A DNA stretch of 4,486 bases from a virus (taxonomy: Duplodnaviria > Heunggongvirae > Uroviricota > Caudoviricetes). Below, one piece after another: positions 1 to 4,486 of the stretch (position 1 is the stretch's first letter; every line of letters begins with the position of its first letter). The notes below the pieces were generated by a model. It was given only the letters and a program-made list of their open reading frames with translations, ran no database searches and had not been told where the DNA came from. Position numbers and translations under genes: made by a program. Where the stretch lies: positions 1 through 4,486 of the IMG/VR virus record IMGVR_UViG_2630968639_000001; one strand, written 5' to 3'.

Positions 1-446
1 GCACCTTTGTGTGTGATACGCAGGCGTGTACCGATGCCATTATTAATTGCGTTACCACCAGCAGCACCGGCAGCGTTACTACCACCATTGCCACCGCGTC
101 CATAGACAGTCACACCTGCGTTGATTACAAGGCTGATATAAGAGTTGGTAAGTGAACTCGGGAAATCTAAACATGGCACGCCGCTACTGGACGACACCAG
201 ATCCCCTGTAATGGTAACAACGACTGGCGTCGCCCCCTGGGATTTTAAATAGTTGATCAGTGTGTCTTTGTTGTAGTTATGATTCGCACCGATGCTGTAC
301 TGAACTTCTTTAGATCGCCCGGCCATTTGAGACATTGAACCAGCCGCTGGCAGTTGCACCGCCGTTCGAGCCGCACTCATCCATCTCTGGCCTGTCACAC
401 TGACAGCCGAAGACCCAATCCAACCGGGAACACCGACAATTGGCAC
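1..446 (-). CDS. Putative T2-type gp38-like tail-fibre adhesin, N-terminal part (3'-partial, continues beyond window start)
   Basis: Hand translation from GTG 446..444 gives MPIVGVPGWIGSSAVSVTGQRWMSAARTAVQLPAAGSMSQMAGRSKEVQYSIGANHNYNKDTLINYLKSQGATPVVVTITGDLVSSSSGVPCLDFPSSLTNSYISLVINAGVTVYGRGGNGGSNAAGAAGGNAINNGIGTRLRITHKG with no stop through position 1. AAGGAG (plus strand 454..459) sits 7 nt upstream of the GTG. The N-terminal VGVPGWIGSSAV..TGQRWMS motif and the glycine-rich GRGGNGGSN..GG motif match my recollection of T2/T6-type gp38 adhesins. The ORF track misses it because it is partial and GTG-initiated. Confidence 0.7.
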   Translation of the reverse strand, partial: MPIVGVPGWIGSSAVSVTGQRWMSAARTAVQLPAAGSMSQMAGRSKEVQYSIGANHNYNKDTLINYLKSQGATPVVVTITGDLVSSSSGVPCLDFPSSLTNSYISLVINAGVTVYGRGGNGGSNAAGAAGGNAINNGIGTRLRITHKG

Positions 447-453
447 ATCTAAT

Positions 454-459
454 CTCCTT
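454..459 (-). promoter_or_regulatory. Shine-Dalgarno (AAGGAG on minus strand) for the downstream adhesin-like ORF
   Basis: Plus strand ctcctt at 454..459 is AAGGAG on the coding strand, 7 nt upstream of GTG 446..444. Confidence 0.6.
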
Positions 460-480
460 TTTGATGTGAATATCCTGAAT

Positions 481-500
481 GGTGAGGGTGGCCCCTCACC
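481..500 (-). other. GC-rich intercistronic stem-loop (8-bp stem, 4-nt loop) between the fibre stop and the adhesin start
   Basis: GGTGAGGG (481-488) pairs perfectly with CCCTCACC (493-500). On the minus-strand transcript it lies 11 nt after the TAA and is followed by AUUCAGGAUAUU, with no U-tract. Confidence 0.4.
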
Positions 501-511
501 ATTCACCTTGA

Positions 512-3500
512 TTACATTTTTGCCTTCAGTTCGCGCACTTCCTCGCGCAGCTCTTTGACAGCCTCGACCAACATGCCGATAACGCCGTTGTAGTTAAGAC
601 GCAGACGAGGCTCTCCTGACTGATCGTTATGGTCAACCGTTACCAGTTCAGGCTGAACATTCTGGACGTCCTGAGCGATGAGGCCGCCAGACTGCTCATA
701 ACGGCCACAGACCTGAATCTCGTAGAGAACACCTTCGATCTGCTCCAGCTTGTCGAGCGCCCGCTCAATTTTGCGAATATTGCGCTTACTACGGCGGTCG
801 GAACGGATGTAAACGTCATTAAAACTACCGTTGCCTGCGCAAACCCAAGTGCCGTCGTTCTGGAGATAAGCGGCAGCGTCAGTGCCGTTTGCGGTACGTG
901 AGTTGTTGATCATGTAAAAACCAAACTGACTGTTTCCCAAGCCACCCAAGAAGAATTTGCGATCCGCGTGGTCTTGTCTCAACAACGCTTGTGCAGAGCT
1001 TGTACTTACAGCGTTCCTCCCGAAGATGACGTTCTGGTTACGCATATCTATCCACGCGCCAGAGCCGCTGTTGATGGAAAAACGGTTGGCGTAAACCCAC
1101 GCACTTGACGTGATGTCACCCGTTACACTCAACGGCTTAAGGCTTTGCAGCGTGCTATTAACGAACCTAAAAACATGGGCGCTATTGGCGTAAACATCCA
1201 GAATGCCATCTCCGTTCTGTTTAAAGCCGGTGTCATTGTCACCCAGAACAATGGAATTACCGCCAAGACCATTGACCACACCCAGCCCAAGACCACCGTT
1301 AACAACAGCACCATTGCCCATTGTTACTCTGCCATTAGTGAGATCTACATAAAATGGACGAAGCGAACCTATATCACCATTTTCTCCCTGGTCTTTTGCT
1401 GTCGGGATAAGGTAAAAATTATTTTCGGAACGGCGAAAAATCATCCCGTATGCCGCATCGTAAATGCGTAACCCATCCGTAGAGCGGATCTTAAGCTGTC
1501 CGGACATCGTACCGCCGCTGTTTTTCATAAATAGCGCATCAATCCAGCCTGCAAATCCCGACTTATTAATGTATAAATTTCCATCATTTGCCAGAATGCC
1601 TCCACCTTGCGTCTTGAGGGGCTGACTCACATTTTGCAGCGTCAGCACACCAGTCATTGTTCCGCCAGAAATCGGTAACGCACCGACATCAGCCGCAGTG
1701 GGTTTGAGAGCAGTGTTGTAATCTCTGCGCCAGGCAGGGGCATACGCGCTACCGTGATTAATATAGGTGAACTGAGCACTGGCAATACCACCTCCGGTTG
1801 TCGTTGTAGGCGTAGTAACTCGGATGGTCATTGCGCCTTCGTGACCTAAAACCTCGATAACCGCACCAGCAAGACAAATATTGCCGACACCTGTATCAGT
1901 GATAATTTTATTGTCGGCATATGACCAAGAGCCTTTCATCATCCAATACGGTACGGCGAAAGCACCACGCTCCTTCAGCCATGCGATAAATTCAGCGGTA
2001 GTCCAGTTGCCAGCCCCAGTACTGTATGACGCGCTAAACGTCTGTGCAGCCCCAACATCTTTCGCTGTGGGTTTATGAGCAGTGGTATAGACCTGCGCCC
2101 AACCAGACCAATTCGCTGTCGAAGTATCACGGCGTGAACGAACATAAACCGGTGCATGAGCACCATCCGTTCCGCTCCAGCCAACAAGCATCTCGCCCTC
2201 ACCAGAAGCACTCGCACCTTTCATGTGCAATACGTTGCCATACATGGTCGGGTAGCTATTGTTGTACGCCTCATACATTTGAATGCCAGCAGTGCCTTGA
2301 GTAGAGCCGCTTAACGCCGTAACTCGGCCACGAGATACCAATGTATTAATATTGATATCGCCTGAACCATCAAACTTAACACCATTGATGTTTCTCGCTG
2401 TTTGCAACTTCGTAGCCGTTGAAGCATTGCCATTCAAGCTACCATTTACGCCACCAGTAACATTGAGTCCATTAGCGATCGTAACAGCACCATTGGCATT
2501 GTTAATGATAAGCGGCCTTAAACTATTATAGGTTCCCAGGCTGTTACCCGAATTGGTCAACATGAAATATGTGTTTGAACCATCGTTTCGGATAAAGAAT
2601 CCGTAGCTTCCGTAGGCAATGCGCAGACCATTCGCCGATTTTGAAATGATCTCACCAGTAGCCGTTAAACCGCCGTTGAGATTTCCTCCGGTTATTGGTA
2701 ATGCGCCGACATCCGTGGCGGTCGGTTTAATGTGCGAACTGTAAATGACATATACCGTTCCATCAGTAAGACCAGTTGGTTTATTCGCTGTATAAGTTGG
2801 TGATGTATGAATCGTTACGCTGGCGTTACTGGTATAATCCCACTGAATATTAACACCTGTGGCGTAATTACCTATTTCAACATAAACATCATAGGTATCA
2901 CCGGATGTATTCACCCATGCAAAATTAGTAAATCCAACCGATGTCCGTCGCCATAATGCACCAGTAATACCCTTTGGATTTCCATTTCCGGCACGCAGAA
3001 CCAGCTCAGAGATGCCTGCTTGATGCGGGGAGCCAACGTTATACCCTGCACCACCAATCAGGCTTATGTAAACCACGGAACTGGCCTGTGGCATGGTTAC
3101 AGTTGCCAGCTTGAACCATCCGGCACCACCACTAAAAGATATTGTTGCTGAGTTGATCGTGCCTATAGACCTTGGAGTTAGCTCAATGTTTTTAGAACCG
3201 TCAAACGACACCCCATTAATAGTACGCGCAGTCTGCAACTTCGTAGCAGTAGCCGCATTACCTGTTGTATTCTGATTACCAGTCGTATTAACACCTGGCA
3301 AATTAATATTTGCAGTACCATCAAAGCTCACGCCGCCGATAGTTCTTGCCGTCTGTAGTTTTGTAGCAGTTGCGGCATTACCAGTGGTGTTCTGATTACC
3401 CGTAGTATTTACACCTGGAAGGTTGATATTTGCAGAACCGTCGAAACCAACTCCACCGATAGATCTTGCCGTCTGCAATTTCGTTGCTGTACTTGCATTA

Positions 3501-4486
3501 CCATTTAATGTTCCGGTGATACCACCAGTAACAGACAACGGACCTGAAACTGTTCCTCCGGTTGTTGGCAGTGCTCCAATATCTAACGGCGTCGGTTTCT
3601 GATGTGTGCTATACATCGTATAAACAACACCATAGGTAACGCTGGAAGGCTTACTCGCTGAATATGTTGGCGATGTATAAATAGAAACTGACGCATTTGC
3701 AGTACAATCCCAATGGATATTTACACTCGTCGCATAATTGCCAATTTCAACGTAAATATCATATGTATCGCCGGATGTGTTGATCCAGGCGAAATTCGCT
3801 AATCCGACAGCTGTACGCTTCCACAAAGCACCTGTAATTCCTTTGGGGTTTCCATTGCCTGCTCGTAGAACCAGTTCTGAAATGCCTGCCTGATGTGGGG
3901 AACCGACGTTGTAACCAGCGCCACCAATCAATGCGATGTAAACGATGGAACTCGCTTGTGGCATGGTAACCGTAGCCAGTTTGAACCACCCTGCCCCGCC
4001 AGAGAAAGACATCGTTACTGAATTTAAAGTACCAATATCTTTCGGCGTTAATGTGATATCCGCAGTCAGTGCTTTTCCGTTAACTTTTCGGTTAGATGGC
4101 ACCCTGCTATTCGCATTGTCATTGGCTGCTTTAACTGCTTTTGGCGTTGCGGCCAGCGATTCACTGGTGCTGTCGACAGCACTGCTAAGTTTCACAACAC
4201 CTTTAGTTGTAAGGCTTGCGTCTTCCATCGCAACTGCACCGGCAATCTCTTCAGCACGATCAGCAGCAGCTTCCGCACGGGTCGCAGCGGATTCAGCAGC
4301 AGTTTTGCTCTGAGATGCTGCCGTCGCACTGCCTGCCGCCTCTGTTGCCTTCGTGGATGCCGTCGTGGCGCTGCCCTTCGCTGCTGACGCCTGTCTGGTC
4401 GCCTCATCTTTTGAAGCAGACGCCGATGAGGCCGATGACGCCGCCGAACTGGCGGACGATGCGGCAGCCGTTTTTGAGGATTCTGC
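512..4486 (-). CDS. Side/long tail fibre protein, 5'-partial (N-terminus lies beyond window end); lambda Stf-like N-terminal region, repeated distal modules, C-terminal peptidase S74 intramolecular chaperone domain
   Basis: ORF track gives 1238 aa from ATG 4228..4226 to TAA 514..512. My hand translation of the minus strand over 4229..4486 in the same frame has no stop and reads AESSKTAAASSASSAASSASASSASKDEATRQASAAKGSATTASTKATEAAGSATAASQSKTAAESAATRAEAAADRAEEIAGAVA before MEDASLTT, so Met 4228 is internal. The following motif KGVVKLSSAVDSTSESLAATPKAVK matches the conserved lambda Stf-type motif from memory. KPTxxDVGALP motifs recur four times and ATKLQTAR tail-fibre repeats are present. No convincing SD precedes ATG 4228. 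Confidence 0.93.
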   Translation of the reverse strand, partial: AESSKTAAASSASSAASSASSASASKDEATRQASAAKGSATTASTKATEAAGSATAASQSKTAAESAATRAEAAADRAEEIAGAVAMEDASLTTKGVVKLSSAVDSTSESLAATPKAVKAANDNANSRVPSNRKVNGKALTADITLTPKDIGTLNSVTMSFSGGAGWFKLATVTMPQASSIVYIALIGGAGYNVGSPHQAGISELVLRAGNGNPKGITGALWKRTAVGLANFAWINTSGDTYDIYVEIGNYATSVNIHWDCTANASVSIYTSPTYSASKPSSVTYGVVYTMYSTHQKPTPLDIGALPTTGGTVSGPLSVTGGITGTLNGNASTATKLQTARSIGGVGFDGSANINLPGVNTTGNQNTTGNAATATKLQTARTIGGVSFDGTANINLPGVNTTGNQNTTGNAATATKLQTARTINGVSFDGSKNIELTPRSIGTINSATISFSGGAGWFKLATVTMPQASSVVYISLIGGAGYNVGSPHQAGISELVLRAGNGNPKGITGALWRRTSVGFTNFAWVNTSGDTYDVYVEIGNYATGVNIQWDYTSNASVTIHTSPTYTANKPTGLTDGTVYVIYSSHIKPTATDVGALPITGGNLNGGLTATGEIISKSANGLRIAYGSYGFFIRNDGSNTYFMLTNSGNSLGTYNSLRPLIINNANGAVTIANGLNVTGGVNGSLNGNASTATKLQTARNINGVKFDGSGDININTLVSRGRVTALSGSTQGTAGIQMYEAYNNSYPTMYGNVLHMKGASASGEGEMLVGWSGTDGAHAPVYVRSRRDTSTANWSGWAQVYTTAHKPTAKDVGAAQTFSASYSTGAGNWTTAEFIAWLKERGAFAVPYWMMKGSWSYADNKIITDTGVGNICLAGAVIEVLGHEGAMTIRVTTPTTTTGGGIASAQFTYINHGSAYAPAWRRDYNTALKPTAADVGALPISGGTMTGVLTLQNVSQPLKTQGGGILANDGNLYINKSGFAGWIDALFMKNSGGTMSGQLKIRSTDGLRIYDAAYGMIFRRSENNFYLIPTAKDQGENGDIGSLRPFYVDLTNGRVTMGNGAVVNGGLGLGVVNGLGGNSIVLGDNDTGFKQNGDGILDVYANSAHVFRFVNSTLQSLKPLSVTGDITSSAWVYANRFSINSGSGAWIDMRNQNVIFGRNAVSTSSAQALLRQDHADRKFFLGGLGNSQFGFYMINNSRTANGTDAAAYLQNDGTWVCAGNGSFNDVYIRSDRRSKRNIRKIERALDKLEQIEGVLYEIQVCGRYEQSGGLIAQDVQNVQPELVTVDHNDQSGEPRLRLNYNGVIGMLVEAVKELREEVRELKAKM
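515..802 (-). other. Peptidase S74 / intramolecular chaperone autoproteolytic domain (C-terminal 96 codons of the fibre CDS); predicted Ser/Lys dyad Ser 802..800 and Lys 787..785
   Basis: C-terminal sequence SDRRSKRNIRKIERALDKLEQIEGVLYEIQVCGRYEQSGGLIAQDVQNVQPELVTVDHNDQSGEPRLRLNYNGVIGMLVEAVKELREEVRELKAKM. The S-x4-K spacing and the GxIAQ..PELV...NYNG.IG.L.EA.KEL pattern fit the S74 chaperone domains of endosialidase tailspikes and T5 L-shaped fibre as I recall them. Confidence 0.8.
1295..1495 (-). repeat. Copy 2 of the paralogous 'GLRI...SLRP...NG.VT' module (aa ~912-978)
   Basis: IRSTDGLRIYDAAYGMIFRRSENNFYLIPTAKDQGENGDIGSLRPFYVDLTNGRVTMGNG; protein-level similarity only. Confidence 0.5.
2342..2440 (-). 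repeat. Isolated fourth, more diverged copy of the ATKLQTAR repeat unit
   Basis: Encodes SLNGNASTATKLQTARNINGVKFDGSGDININT (fibre aa ~597-629); nucleotide similarity to the array is visible around 2391-2440 against 3341-3390. Confidence 0.7.
2450..2650 (-). repeat. Copy 1 of a paralogous 'GLRI...SLRP...NG.VT' module within the fibre (aa ~527-593)
   Basis: ISKSANGLRIAYGSYGFFIRNDGSNTYFMLTNSGNSLGTYNSLRPLIINNANGAVTIANG aligns with the copy at 1295..1495; protein-level similarity only. Confidence 0.5.
2681..3187 (-). repeat. Copy 2 of the duplicated module of about 169 codons (fibre aa ~348-516)
   Basis: Protein IELTPRSIGTINSATISFSGGAGWFKLATVTMPQASSVVYISLIGGAGYNVGSPHQAGISELVLRAGNGNPKGITGALWRRT...KPTATDVGALPITGG. 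Plus-strand shadow ORFs 3093..3275 and 3945..4313 both begin MVTVASLNHPAPP, an independent sign of the duplication. Confidence 0.85.
3188..3502 (-). repeat. Tandem array of 120-nt (40-codon) repeats, about 2.6 copies, encoding ATKLQTAR-type tail-fibre repeats
   Basis: Units at 3383..3502, 3263..3382 and partial 3188..3262 encode GNA[AS]TATKLQTAR[ST]IGGV[GS]FDG[ST]ANINLPGVNTTGNQNTT. Blocks 3361-3420 and 3241-3300 align base for base with scattered mismatches. Confidence 0.85.
3551..4057 (-). repeat. Copy 1 of a diverged duplicated module of about 169 codons (fibre aa ~58-226)
   Basis: Protein ITLTPKDIGTLNSVTMSFSGGAGWFKLATVTMPQASSIVYIALIGGAGYNVGSPHQAGISELVLRAGNGNPKGITGALWKRT...KPTPLDIGALPTTGG aligns colinearly with copy 2. 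The nucleotide similarity is visible at an 870-nt offset, for example 3751-3810 against 2881-2940. Confidence 0.85.
4229..4486 (-). other. Ala/Ser/Thr-rich low-complexity segment of the fibre protein (lambda Stf-type shaft region), in frame with and upstream of Met 4228
   Basis: Hand translation codon by codon: 86 codons with no stop, dominated by A, S, T, K and E in short quasi-repeats (SAxxA, AAxSxx). Confidence 0.8.

Follow-up and report, generated by a model that had tools for sequence, protein, structure and literature searches.

Organization of the tail-fiber locus

The window, by which we mean the whole 4,486-nucleotide stretch of viral DNA analyzed here, carries on its minus strand a tail-fiber gene and, downstream of it, the gene for a gp38-type tail-fiber adhesin (Table 1). 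At least 1324 codons of the fiber open reading frame (ORF) are visible, and both the ORF list and in-frame translation show the frame to be open as far as base 4486, with no stop in the translation of positions 4229 to 4486. Because there is no upstream stop up to base 4486, the fiber gene is cut by the window, and numbering from the ATG at 4228 is arbitrary; residue numbers throughout are counted from this ATG, which gives a product of 1238 residues. An exact-sequence look-up returned no record for the 1238-amino-acid product, the real protein being longer, as the ORF leaves the window (the related fiber of CMS-2020a has 1576 amino acids). The best DNA matches were to the SSU5-like phages CMS-2020a (93.5%) and SSU5 (90.6%, in the 3' part of the fiber gene), and we used the records of both as context for the window-cut fiber. 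In sequence, the source resembles an SSU5-like phage-plasmid, without T-even myovirus character.

Pfam matches in the fiber were to Phage_fiber_2, Gp34_trimer (three copies), and Peptidase_S74, and the shaft is put together, mosaic-fashion, from repeats of the lambda-Stf type, the Gp34_trimer repeats, and a domain like that of phage Mu tail fiber protein S. In a phmmer search of the PDB, query residues 16 to 127 of this distal region matched residues 336 to 446 of Mu S (5yvq_A; E = 2.4e-36), with the likeness fading at ...DGTWVCAG.

The adhesin gene, of which 148 codons lie within the window, matches the Pfam families Gp38_N (E = 3.8e-15) and GP38 (E = 1.1e-40), the PDB entries 6f45_D (S16 gp38; E = 1.8e-29) and 9v85 (gp38; E = 8.4e-19), and PHROG 2056, "tail fiber protein; host specificity" (E = 1.6e-59). 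We prefer the GTG at 446 as its start codon because the Gp38_N profile begins with the first residue of the protein read from this codon and a GGAG lies 7 nt upstream; an ATG near 503, which lies inside a hairpin and is the mechanical ORF start in CMS-2020a, was rejected. The N-terminal helices of gp38 bear three conserved Trp prongs that insert into pockets of gp37 (PMC6851490), and two of the three are kept here (W9 and W22), the third position being Ser; it is Asn in CMS-2020a, and the Trp is kept in the SSU5 adhesin SSU5_022. Only the first glycine-rich motif of the adhesin, YGRGGNGGSN, falls within the window, and the full-length CMS-2020a homolog has the polyglycine runs GGGGGGGGG and GGGGGRPFGAGG. 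A Gp38_N gene directly follows the S74 fiber gene in all four relatives examined (five loci), with differing shafts, and some loci carry two tandem adhesins. The arrangement is that of the published paradigm, in which gp37 carries a chaperone domain and the adhesin gp38 is a protein of its own (bioRxiv 10.64898/2026.05.12.724579).

The 65-nt spacer between the two genes contains a strong hairpin (-29.9 kcal/mol; z = -4.5; none of 200 shuffles as stable) with no T-run after it. A promoter and terminator scan of the spacer found nothing, which rules the hairpin out as a canonical intrinsic terminator.

Table 1. Features of the tail-fiber locus (window coordinates; residues counted from the ATG at 4228)
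Feature	Position	Strand	Details
Tail-fiber gene	512..4486	-	Stop 514..512; 5' end beyond window
Distal shaft domain, homolog of phage Mu tail fiber protein S	836..1105	-	Residues ~1042-1131; adjoins cleavage module upstream
Last ten predicted mature-shaft residues, NGSFNDVYIR (1133-1142)	803..832	-	Column counts, 183 aligned homologs
Predicted scissile bond, Arg1142 (805..803)/Ser1143 (802..800)	800..805	-	Ser1143, predicted nucleophile; sequence and alignments
Peptidase S74 C-terminal intramolecular chaperone domain	515..802	-	96 aa, 11.06 kDa; predicted released fragment
Lys1148, predicted general base, 5 residues past Ser	785..787	-	Aligns with endoNF K916 and T5 K1269
Predicted long C-terminal alpha-helix, residues 1213-1237	518..592	-	DSSP on AF2 model
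13-bp hairpin in fiber-adhesin spacer	476..505	-	RNA fold
gp38-type tail-fiber adhesin gene	1..446	-	Start GTG 446..444, GGAG 457..454; 3' end beyond window

The fiber ends in a Peptidase S74 domain with an aligned Ser/Lys dyad

Judged by homology, the last 96 residues of the fiber make up a Peptidase S74 domain, a self-cleaving folding domain of an ordinary and well-known kind, which runs to the stop codon and so forms the extreme C-terminus of the protein. Residues 1143 to 1197 (window 638-802) match Pfam PF13884 over the whole profile (positions 1 to 58 of 58; E = 3.2e-11) with a score of 43.8 bits against a cut-off of 22, and profile position 1 is Ser1143. A preliminary description of the locus had placed the catalytic Ser at 802..800 and the Lys five residues on at 787..785, and this is what the minus-strand codons read: atc Ile (808..806), cgt Arg (805..803), tcc Ser (802..800), gac Asp (799..797), cgc Arg (796..794), cgt Arg (793..791), agt Ser (790..788), and aag Lys (787..785), all in frame with the stop at 514..512, for a local sequence of ...NDVYIR|SDRRSK.... 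The ~11-kDa fragment that it had predicted likewise holds up, the stretch from Ser1143 to the last residue comprising 96 amino acids with a computed mass of 11,062.5 Da.

The assignment of these two residues to an S74 dyad is borne out by the Pfam profile start, by alignment to four characterized phage proteins, and by fold matches. In the alignment to S16 gp37 (6f45_A; E = 8.8e-13), IR|SDRRSK faces VS|SDRRIK with Ser and Lys in register, and the reported cleavage site of S16 gp37 is DLNVS^SDRRIKK; that of fPS phage gp37 reads DVYIR^SDGRLKI (both PMC7917993). A 20-sequence profile run against the PDB matched 8jov, 7dc3 (E = 8.9e-6), and 3gud; Ser1143 pairs with the first residue of GA-1's released chaperone in 3gud and, in 7dc3, with the position of the mutated Ser of MyRF. 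The many profile matches to collagen and nucleoside-diphosphate-kinase, all at E > 0.1, were disregarded; rows with collagen repeats in alignment A1 are the most likely source of those to collagen.

Alignment to endoNF and T5 pb1 had been named in advance as the comparison that could overturn the prediction. When the fiber was aligned by MAFFT with both (K1F gp17 and T5 ltf, taken from their genome records), Ser and Lys fell exactly at the predicted positions (S1143 = S911 = S1264; K1148 = K916 = K1269), and the predicted scissile bond lay opposite T910|S911 of endoNF and T1263|S1264 of T5. Neither endoNF (3GW6) nor T5 pb1 (4UW8) was reached at E <= 10 in PDB searches with the single sequence or the 20-sequence profile, so the residue-level alignment to these two depends on MAFFT and on common membership of the Pfam family. 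In T5 it is the Thr1263-Ser1264 bond that is cut, such that the Ser leaves with the chaperone (PMC4690869, which also gives the T5 mutagenesis and mechanism); cleavage N-terminal to Ser1143 matches this choice of bond. From the homology we infer, on grounds that we regard as sound, that cleavage at Arg|Ser would release the 11.06-kDa fragment.

The dyad is widely kept. The S-D-x3-K triple is present in 171 of the 177 homologs aligned at these columns, with Ser in 172 of 177 and Lys in 176 of 183, and 28,172 library proteins match the S74 domain at E <= 0.001. Conservation also extends upstream of the site: NGSFNDVYIR and the chaperone domain are jointly conserved on unrelated shafts, and in alignment A1 collagen-type and Mu-S-type shafts converge at ...GNGSFNDVxIR. 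The NGSFNDVYIR segment is likely to be the last beta-helix turn and the adhesin docking end.

Predicted fold and the region upstream of the site

An AF2 monomer model of a 129-residue query gave pLDDT values above 90 over the S74 domain and below 50 over the strands just before the cleavage site. By DSSP, residues 104 to 128 of the query (pLDDT 92 to 97) form the long C-terminal helix. In T5 and endoNF the chaperone terminates in a triple coiled coil (PMC4690869), and on the model the terminal helix here is expected to contribute to a trimeric coiled coil. The best Foldseek match was the MyRF ICA domain (7dc3; E = 3.8e-5, TM = 0.63), followed by the endoNF chaperone (3gw6).

For endoNF and T5, a folding sensor has been proposed in which an Arg from the neighboring chain (Arg897 and Arg1250, respectively) acts with an Asp and the P1 Thr to form the oxyanion hole (PMC4690869). 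In the MAFFT alignment, the column of this sensor Arg (endoNF R897, T5 R1250) holds Ser in our fiber, the linker before the catalytic Ser has 6 residues fewer than in endoNF and T5, and P1 is Arg. The absence of the sensor Arg together with the shorter linker suggests that the trigger for cleavage may differ from that of endoNF and T5. S16 gp37 likewise departs from the endoNF/T5 sensor upstream of its site. The sensor is part of a mechanism proposed for two S74 members and lies outside the definition of the family.

Comparison with characterized and related systems

The closest characterized counterpart is the gp37/gp38 pair of S16 (T2/T6-type; PDB 6F45). The two have in common a C-terminal S74 domain with SDRR-x-K, alignable over its whole length, and, immediately downstream, a gene for a gp38 adhesin comprising Gp38_N and GP38; in S16 the chain is reported to be cut just before the aligned Ser. 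The S16 chaperone has 113 residues, whereas the one described here has 96, P1 is Ser in S16 but Arg here, and the third Trp prong of S16 gp38 is replaced. The source here, moreover, looks like an SSU5-like phage-plasmid and not like a T-even myovirus, and its fiber shaft is a mosaic.

The SSU5 fiber, SSU5_021, has the same IR|SDRRSK site and a nearly identical chaperone domain, although the extreme C-termini differ (...RELRGEISVLKGGN versus ...RELKAKM). It too is followed by an adhesin gene, but SSU5_022 (178 amino acids) shares only the ~45-residue Gp38_N part and lacks the polyglycine GP38 domain, and the two SSU5 genes abut, without the hairpin-bearing spacer seen here. Our literature search found no study of SSU5 fiber processing or of gp38 in SSU5-like elements and no experiment on this fiber protein or that of SSU5.

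EndoNF and T5 pb1 share with this fiber PF13884 and a Ser/Lys dyad with a spacing of five that opens a C-terminal domain ending in a long helix. Their domains are larger, however (133 and 154 residues, with long beta-hairpin "tentacles"), than the compact 96-residue domain here, in which the upstream D...R...T sensor is not conserved. In T5 there is no gp38 partner and the cleaved end is itself the receptor-binding domain (PMC4690869). The best structural match, MyRF ICA (7DC3), has its dyad in register and is similarly compact, but MyRF is a eukaryotic membrane-bound transcription factor rather than a virion fiber, and its domain has 22% sequence identity to this one.

A model for fiber maturation

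The domain homology, the match of the dyad residue by residue, the fold prediction, and the pairing of the two genes in relatives were all observed here. The explanation that best accounts for them is one that we consider highly probable: the S74 chaperone would fold the shaft trimer and cleave itself at Arg1142|Ser1143, and the end thus exposed would dock the gp38-type adhesin. Trimerization, cleavage, and capping are the inferred steps. Three copies of the S74 domain would nucleate the trimerization of the beta-helical shaft and its folding. In the folded trimer, the hydroxyl of Ser1143, activated by Lys1148, would attack the Arg1142-Ser1143 peptide bond, and each chain would shed a fragment starting SDRRSK..., leaving a shaft that ends ...NGSFNDVYIR. 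Removal of the chaperones would uncover a surface on which a single gp38-type adhesin molecule would dock, as in T2 and S16, and the product of the next gene, rather than the shaft end, would carry host specificity.

The preliminary description had taken ...NGSFNDVYIR to be the mature tip. It stands as the predicted C-terminus of the shaft polypeptide; since a gp38-type adhesin gene directly follows, ...DVYIR is probably not the functional tip, and by analogy with S16 and T2 the adhesin probably caps the cleaved shaft end.

Alternative explanations

One alternative accepts the same cleavage but makes the shaft end ...DVYIR the receptor-binding tip and the gp38-like protein an assembly factor or an unrelated product. 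In T5 the receptor-binding domain does lie directly upstream of the chaperone (PMC4690869), the domain in that place here is a homolog of the distal portion of Mu fiber protein S, and the adhesin has only two of the three Trp prongs. Yet both domains of the solved S16 adhesin, Gp38_N for attachment and GP38, are present in the downstream protein, the gene pairing persists in four of four relatives even though their shafts differ, and the shared module starts only ~10 residues before the site, which fits a docking element and not a binding domain. We regard this alternative as unlikely. Lower still do we place the possibility that a genuine S74 homolog is retained as a C-terminal trimerization knob or is cut past the Ser, to leave ...YIRS and a 95-residue fragment. 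The loss of the endoNF/T5 sensor Arg speaks for it, but Ser, Asp, and Lys are all present and hardly vary across the family, the released fragments of S16, T5, endoNF, and GA-1 all begin with Ser, and a chaperone left in place would occupy the end at which Gp38_N docks, making this reading very improbable.

That the Ser-Lys spacing is a chance motif with no autoproteolytic function is an idea to which we give almost no credence, homology having already refuted it. On its own the spacing is indeed unremarkable: the 1238 residues contain S-x4-K 3 times where shuffles predict 3.66, which is not significant, and SDxxxK once where they predict 0.14. Set against this are the PF13884 score, roughly twice its cut-off and starting at Ser1143, the residue-level agreement with five characterized homologs, the fold matches, and the conservation of the motif in almost all aligned homologs. 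Thus, the site stands above chance because of homology and not because of the bare motif.

A wider proposal is plausible but tentative, and we would not yet bet on it: a portable "tip cassette" would consist of the last ~10 shaft residues, the compact S74 chaperone, and an adhesin with Gp38_N, and would have its own trimer-sensing trigger. In temperate Enterobacterales phages and phage-plasmids, such a cassette may have been joined to shafts unrelated to one another, and adhesins may be swapped right after the chaperone stop codon. The shafts concerned are Mu-S-like here and collagen-like in Salmonella and Escherichia coli prophages. Because the endoNF/T5 sensor Arg is absent, the compact subfamily would use a different trimer-sensing trigger, possibly one involving the conserved P1 Arg.

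Implications

The analysis reveals no new biology: the S74 domain, its catalytic dyad, and the pairing of gp37 with gp38 were all known before, and automatic annotation already picks up every one of them. What it provides is a precise predicted maturation site for the fiber of an SSU5-like phage-plasmid, at Arg|Ser, with release of an 11,062-Da fragment from SDRRSK. On this prediction, host specificity is to be sought in the downstream gp38-type adhesin and not in the cleaved shaft end, and constructs for host-range engineering or fiber expression would have to include the chaperone domain and probably the adhesin as well.

The predicted processing site and its family

The C-terminal domain of the tail fibre is, by computation, an S74 homologue in which Ser1143 and Lys1148 are the homologous catalytic pair, and the predicted fold agrees. 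These residue numbers are counted from the ATG at 4228 for convenience only, because the frame, uninterrupted by any stop before that codon, stays open up to base 4486 (minus strand, 4229-4486), so that the gene is truncated by the window and the start in the ORF list is not the real one. The extension encodes an Ala/Ser-rich low-complexity stretch (AESSKTAAASSASSAASSASSASASKDEA...), and in the 1576-aa fibre of CMS-2020a ~338 further residues precede the point matching ATG 4228. Direct codon reading of the minus strand confirmed the peptide ...NGSFNDVYIR-SDRRSK... of the preliminary description, and the fragment from Ser to the last residue comes to the predicted 96 aa (11,062.5 Da, computed).

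Pfam Peptidase_S74 (PF13884) matches residues 1143-1197 over profile positions 1-58 of 58 with 43.8 bits (curated cut-off, 22 bits), and the profile starts exactly at Ser1143. With the last 106 residues as query, 28,172 proteins among 1.84 billion cluster representatives reached E<=0.001; when the best 150 of these were aligned with the earlier matches and SSU5, Ser, Asp and Lys stood together at the three motif columns in 171 of the 177 sequences with residues there. In PHROGs, the C-terminus groups with "long tail fiber protein distal subunit" families. Compared with shuffles, the fibre protein holds three S-x4-K (3.66 expected) and one SDxxxK (0.14 expected); the bare S-x4-K pattern is no more than chance would give, and the case for the predicted site rests on homology, which excludes a chance Ser/Lys motif.

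The last 129 residues were modelled as a monomer with AlphaFold2 (mean pLDDT 82). The pLDDT exceeded 90 in the chaperone domain, which terminated in a 25-residue helix, and was below 50 in the strands leading up to the predicted cleavage site, as would be expected where folding needs the trimer. Foldseek ranked two PDB structures highest, the MyRF ICA domain (E 3.8e-5, TM 0.63) and 3gw6, the intramolecular chaperone of endoNF, and apart from these two no PDB match had E <0.7.

Features mapped in the window
Feature	Position	Strand	Details
Tail-fibre reading frame	stop codon 514..512	minus	single long frame in ORF list
Codons around predicted cleavage site	Ile 808..806, Arg 805..803, Ser 802..800, Asp 799..797, Arg 796..794, Arg 793..791, Ser 790..788, Lys 787..785	minus	read directly
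Mu-S-like shaft domain	836-1105	minus	homologous to Mu S residues 336-446, E 2.4e-36
Internal duplication, 170 residues	3560-4069 and 2690-3199	minus	residues 54-223 and 344-513; 131/170 identical (SFSGGAGWFKLATVTMPQASS...)
Fibre repeat GNAxTATKLQTAR(x)I(x)G(x)FDG	3185-3502 and 2364-2431		four copies
Hairpin, perfect 13 bp, GC-rich (GGUGAAUGGUGAGGGGCCACCCUCACCAUUCAGG region)	476-505	minus	in 65-nt spacer from fibre stop to adhesin start
Adhesin gene	start GTG 446..444	minus	GGAG upstream; frame runs off window; 148 residues visible

Comparison with characterised chaperones

The C-terminal 212 residues matched S16 gp37 (PDB 6F45 chain A; E 8.8e-13), with IR/SDRRSKRNIRK opposite VS/SDRRIKKDIKA. 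Autocleavage of S16 gp37 has been placed between both serines of DLNVS^SDRRIKK, and that of gp37 from the fPS phages at DVYIR^SDGRLKI (PMC7917993); the five fPS residues before the cut are identical to those of the window fibre. A profile search built on 20 homologues placed Ser1143 opposite residue 1 of 3gud, the released neck-appendage chaperone of GA-1, and opposite the catalytic position of the MyRF ICA domain (7dc3), which carries an Ala substitution there. This search did not reach endoNF or T5 pb1, and we therefore took K1F gp17 (endoNF) and T5 ltf from genome records and aligned the C-termini directly with MAFFT. Ser1143 corresponds to endoNF Ser911 and T5 Ser1264, and Lys1148 to endoNF Lys916 and T5 Lys1269, so that in the alignment the preliminary description had named as its own test the catalytic residues fall where it had put them. 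In T5, the bond cut is Thr1263-Ser1264, Lys1269 activates the Ser, the Ser departs with the chaperone, and the S1264A mutation blocks processing (PMC4690869).

The same MAFFT alignment also revealed differences. The upstream Asp/Arg "folding sensor" of endoNF and T5 (D886/R897; D1239/R1250) is not conserved in the window fibre, which has Ser in the column of endoNF R897 and T5 R1250, a linker to the catalytic Ser six residues shorter, and Arg rather than Thr at P1. Such differences suggest that the coupling of cleavage to folding in this compact subfamily may differ from that in endoNF and T5.

Shaft architecture

The Mu-S-like domain sits just upstream of the cleavage module. Mu S depends on a separate chaperone, U, and has a different C-terminal part after the homologous domain, its chain continuing to residue 504, whereas in the window fibre an intramolecular chaperone follows the domain in the same chain; the comparison indicates a clear mosaic junction near ...DGTWVCAG. 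Farther upstream, the internal duplication corresponds to Pfam Gp34_trimer matches, and both copies also occur in CMS-2020a, set farther apart by additional sequence. Three copies of the fibre repeat form a tandem array that repeats exactly every 120 nt and share 68-75% DNA identity with the fourth.

The downstream adhesin gene and the fibre tip

In Pfam, the visible part of the adhesin matches Gp38_N (E 3.8e-15) and GP38 (E 1.1e-40); in the PDB, it matches the S16 gp38 chain 6f45_D (E 1.8e-29) and a PP01-type gp38. The PHROGs families to which the protein is assigned are named for "host specificity" and "adhesin". The full-length CMS-2020a homologue shows polyglycine runs, as is typical for adhesins of the gp38 kind. 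The attachment domain of gp38 has three conserved Trp "prongs": W9 and W22 are kept, but the third (window 332-340, adhesin residues ~36-38) is Ser here and Asn in CMS-2020a (locus L004, 2664-3443), whereas SSU5_022 (L001, 3428-3964) keeps Trp. The spacer hairpin (-29.9 kcal/mol, z -4.5) has no T-run and was not called a terminator by the scan; it might tune the 3:1 fibre:adhesin ratio. SSU5 has no spacer at this point, and its fibre and adhesin genes abut.

The best DNA matches of the window are SSU5-like elements (CMS-2020a, SSU5 and Cyrano), with 93.5% identity over 75% of the window for CMS-2020a and 90.6% in the 3' portion of the fibre gene for SSU5, whose genes RefSeq names "tail fiber protein" and "tail fiber adhesin." The SSU5 match stops at base 528, inside the last few fibre codons, and the 178-aa SSU5 adhesin lacks a polyglycine domain and resembles the window adhesin only over the ~45-residue Gp38_N part, which together suggest adhesin exchange by recombination at the end of the fibre gene. 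A literature search found no experimental work on SSU5-type fibre processing.

The adhesin gene is a conserved neighbour: a Gp38_N gene directly follows the S74 fibre gene in all four relatives looked up (four proteins, five loci; E. coli, Salmonella and Photorhabdus prophages). Their shafts are collagen-like, Mu-S-like or other, and in the alignment of 20 homologues differing shafts become alike only at ...GNGSFNDVxIR, ~10-12 residues short of the predicted cleavage site. S16/T2-type gp37 has a chaperone domain and does not itself form a receptor-binding tip; once the chaperone is removed, a face is exposed on which one gp38 monomer docks (PMC7917993; PMC6851490; bioRxiv 10.64898/2026.05.12.724579). 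The most plausible reading, therefore, is that the shaft polypeptide ends at ...DVYIR and that the adhesin docks there. Thus, ...NGSFNDVYIR, which the preliminary description took for the mature tip, holds as the predicted polypeptide end but is probably not the working tip. That the cleaved end is itself the tip, as in T5, is unlikely given the Gp38_N neighbour. Still more improbable is that the S74 domain is retained, or cut after the Ser, as the dyad is intact and the behaviour of S16, T5, endoNF and GA-1 counts against it.

By analogy with the family, three chaperone domains would drive the folding of the trimer, Lys1148 would activate Ser1143 for attack on the Arg1142-Ser1143 bond, each chain would shed its 96-aa fragment, and one adhesin would then cap the trimer. 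Separately, two Salmonella prophage contigs (L007, 3588-4900; L008, 3587-4899) carry two different Gp38_N genes in tandem after the S74 fibre gene, encoding 260 aa with and 170 aa without a GP38 domain, which may provide one fibre with alternative tips. The fibre site belongs to a well-known kind and is unsurprising to a specialist, and its prediction is useful for construct design.
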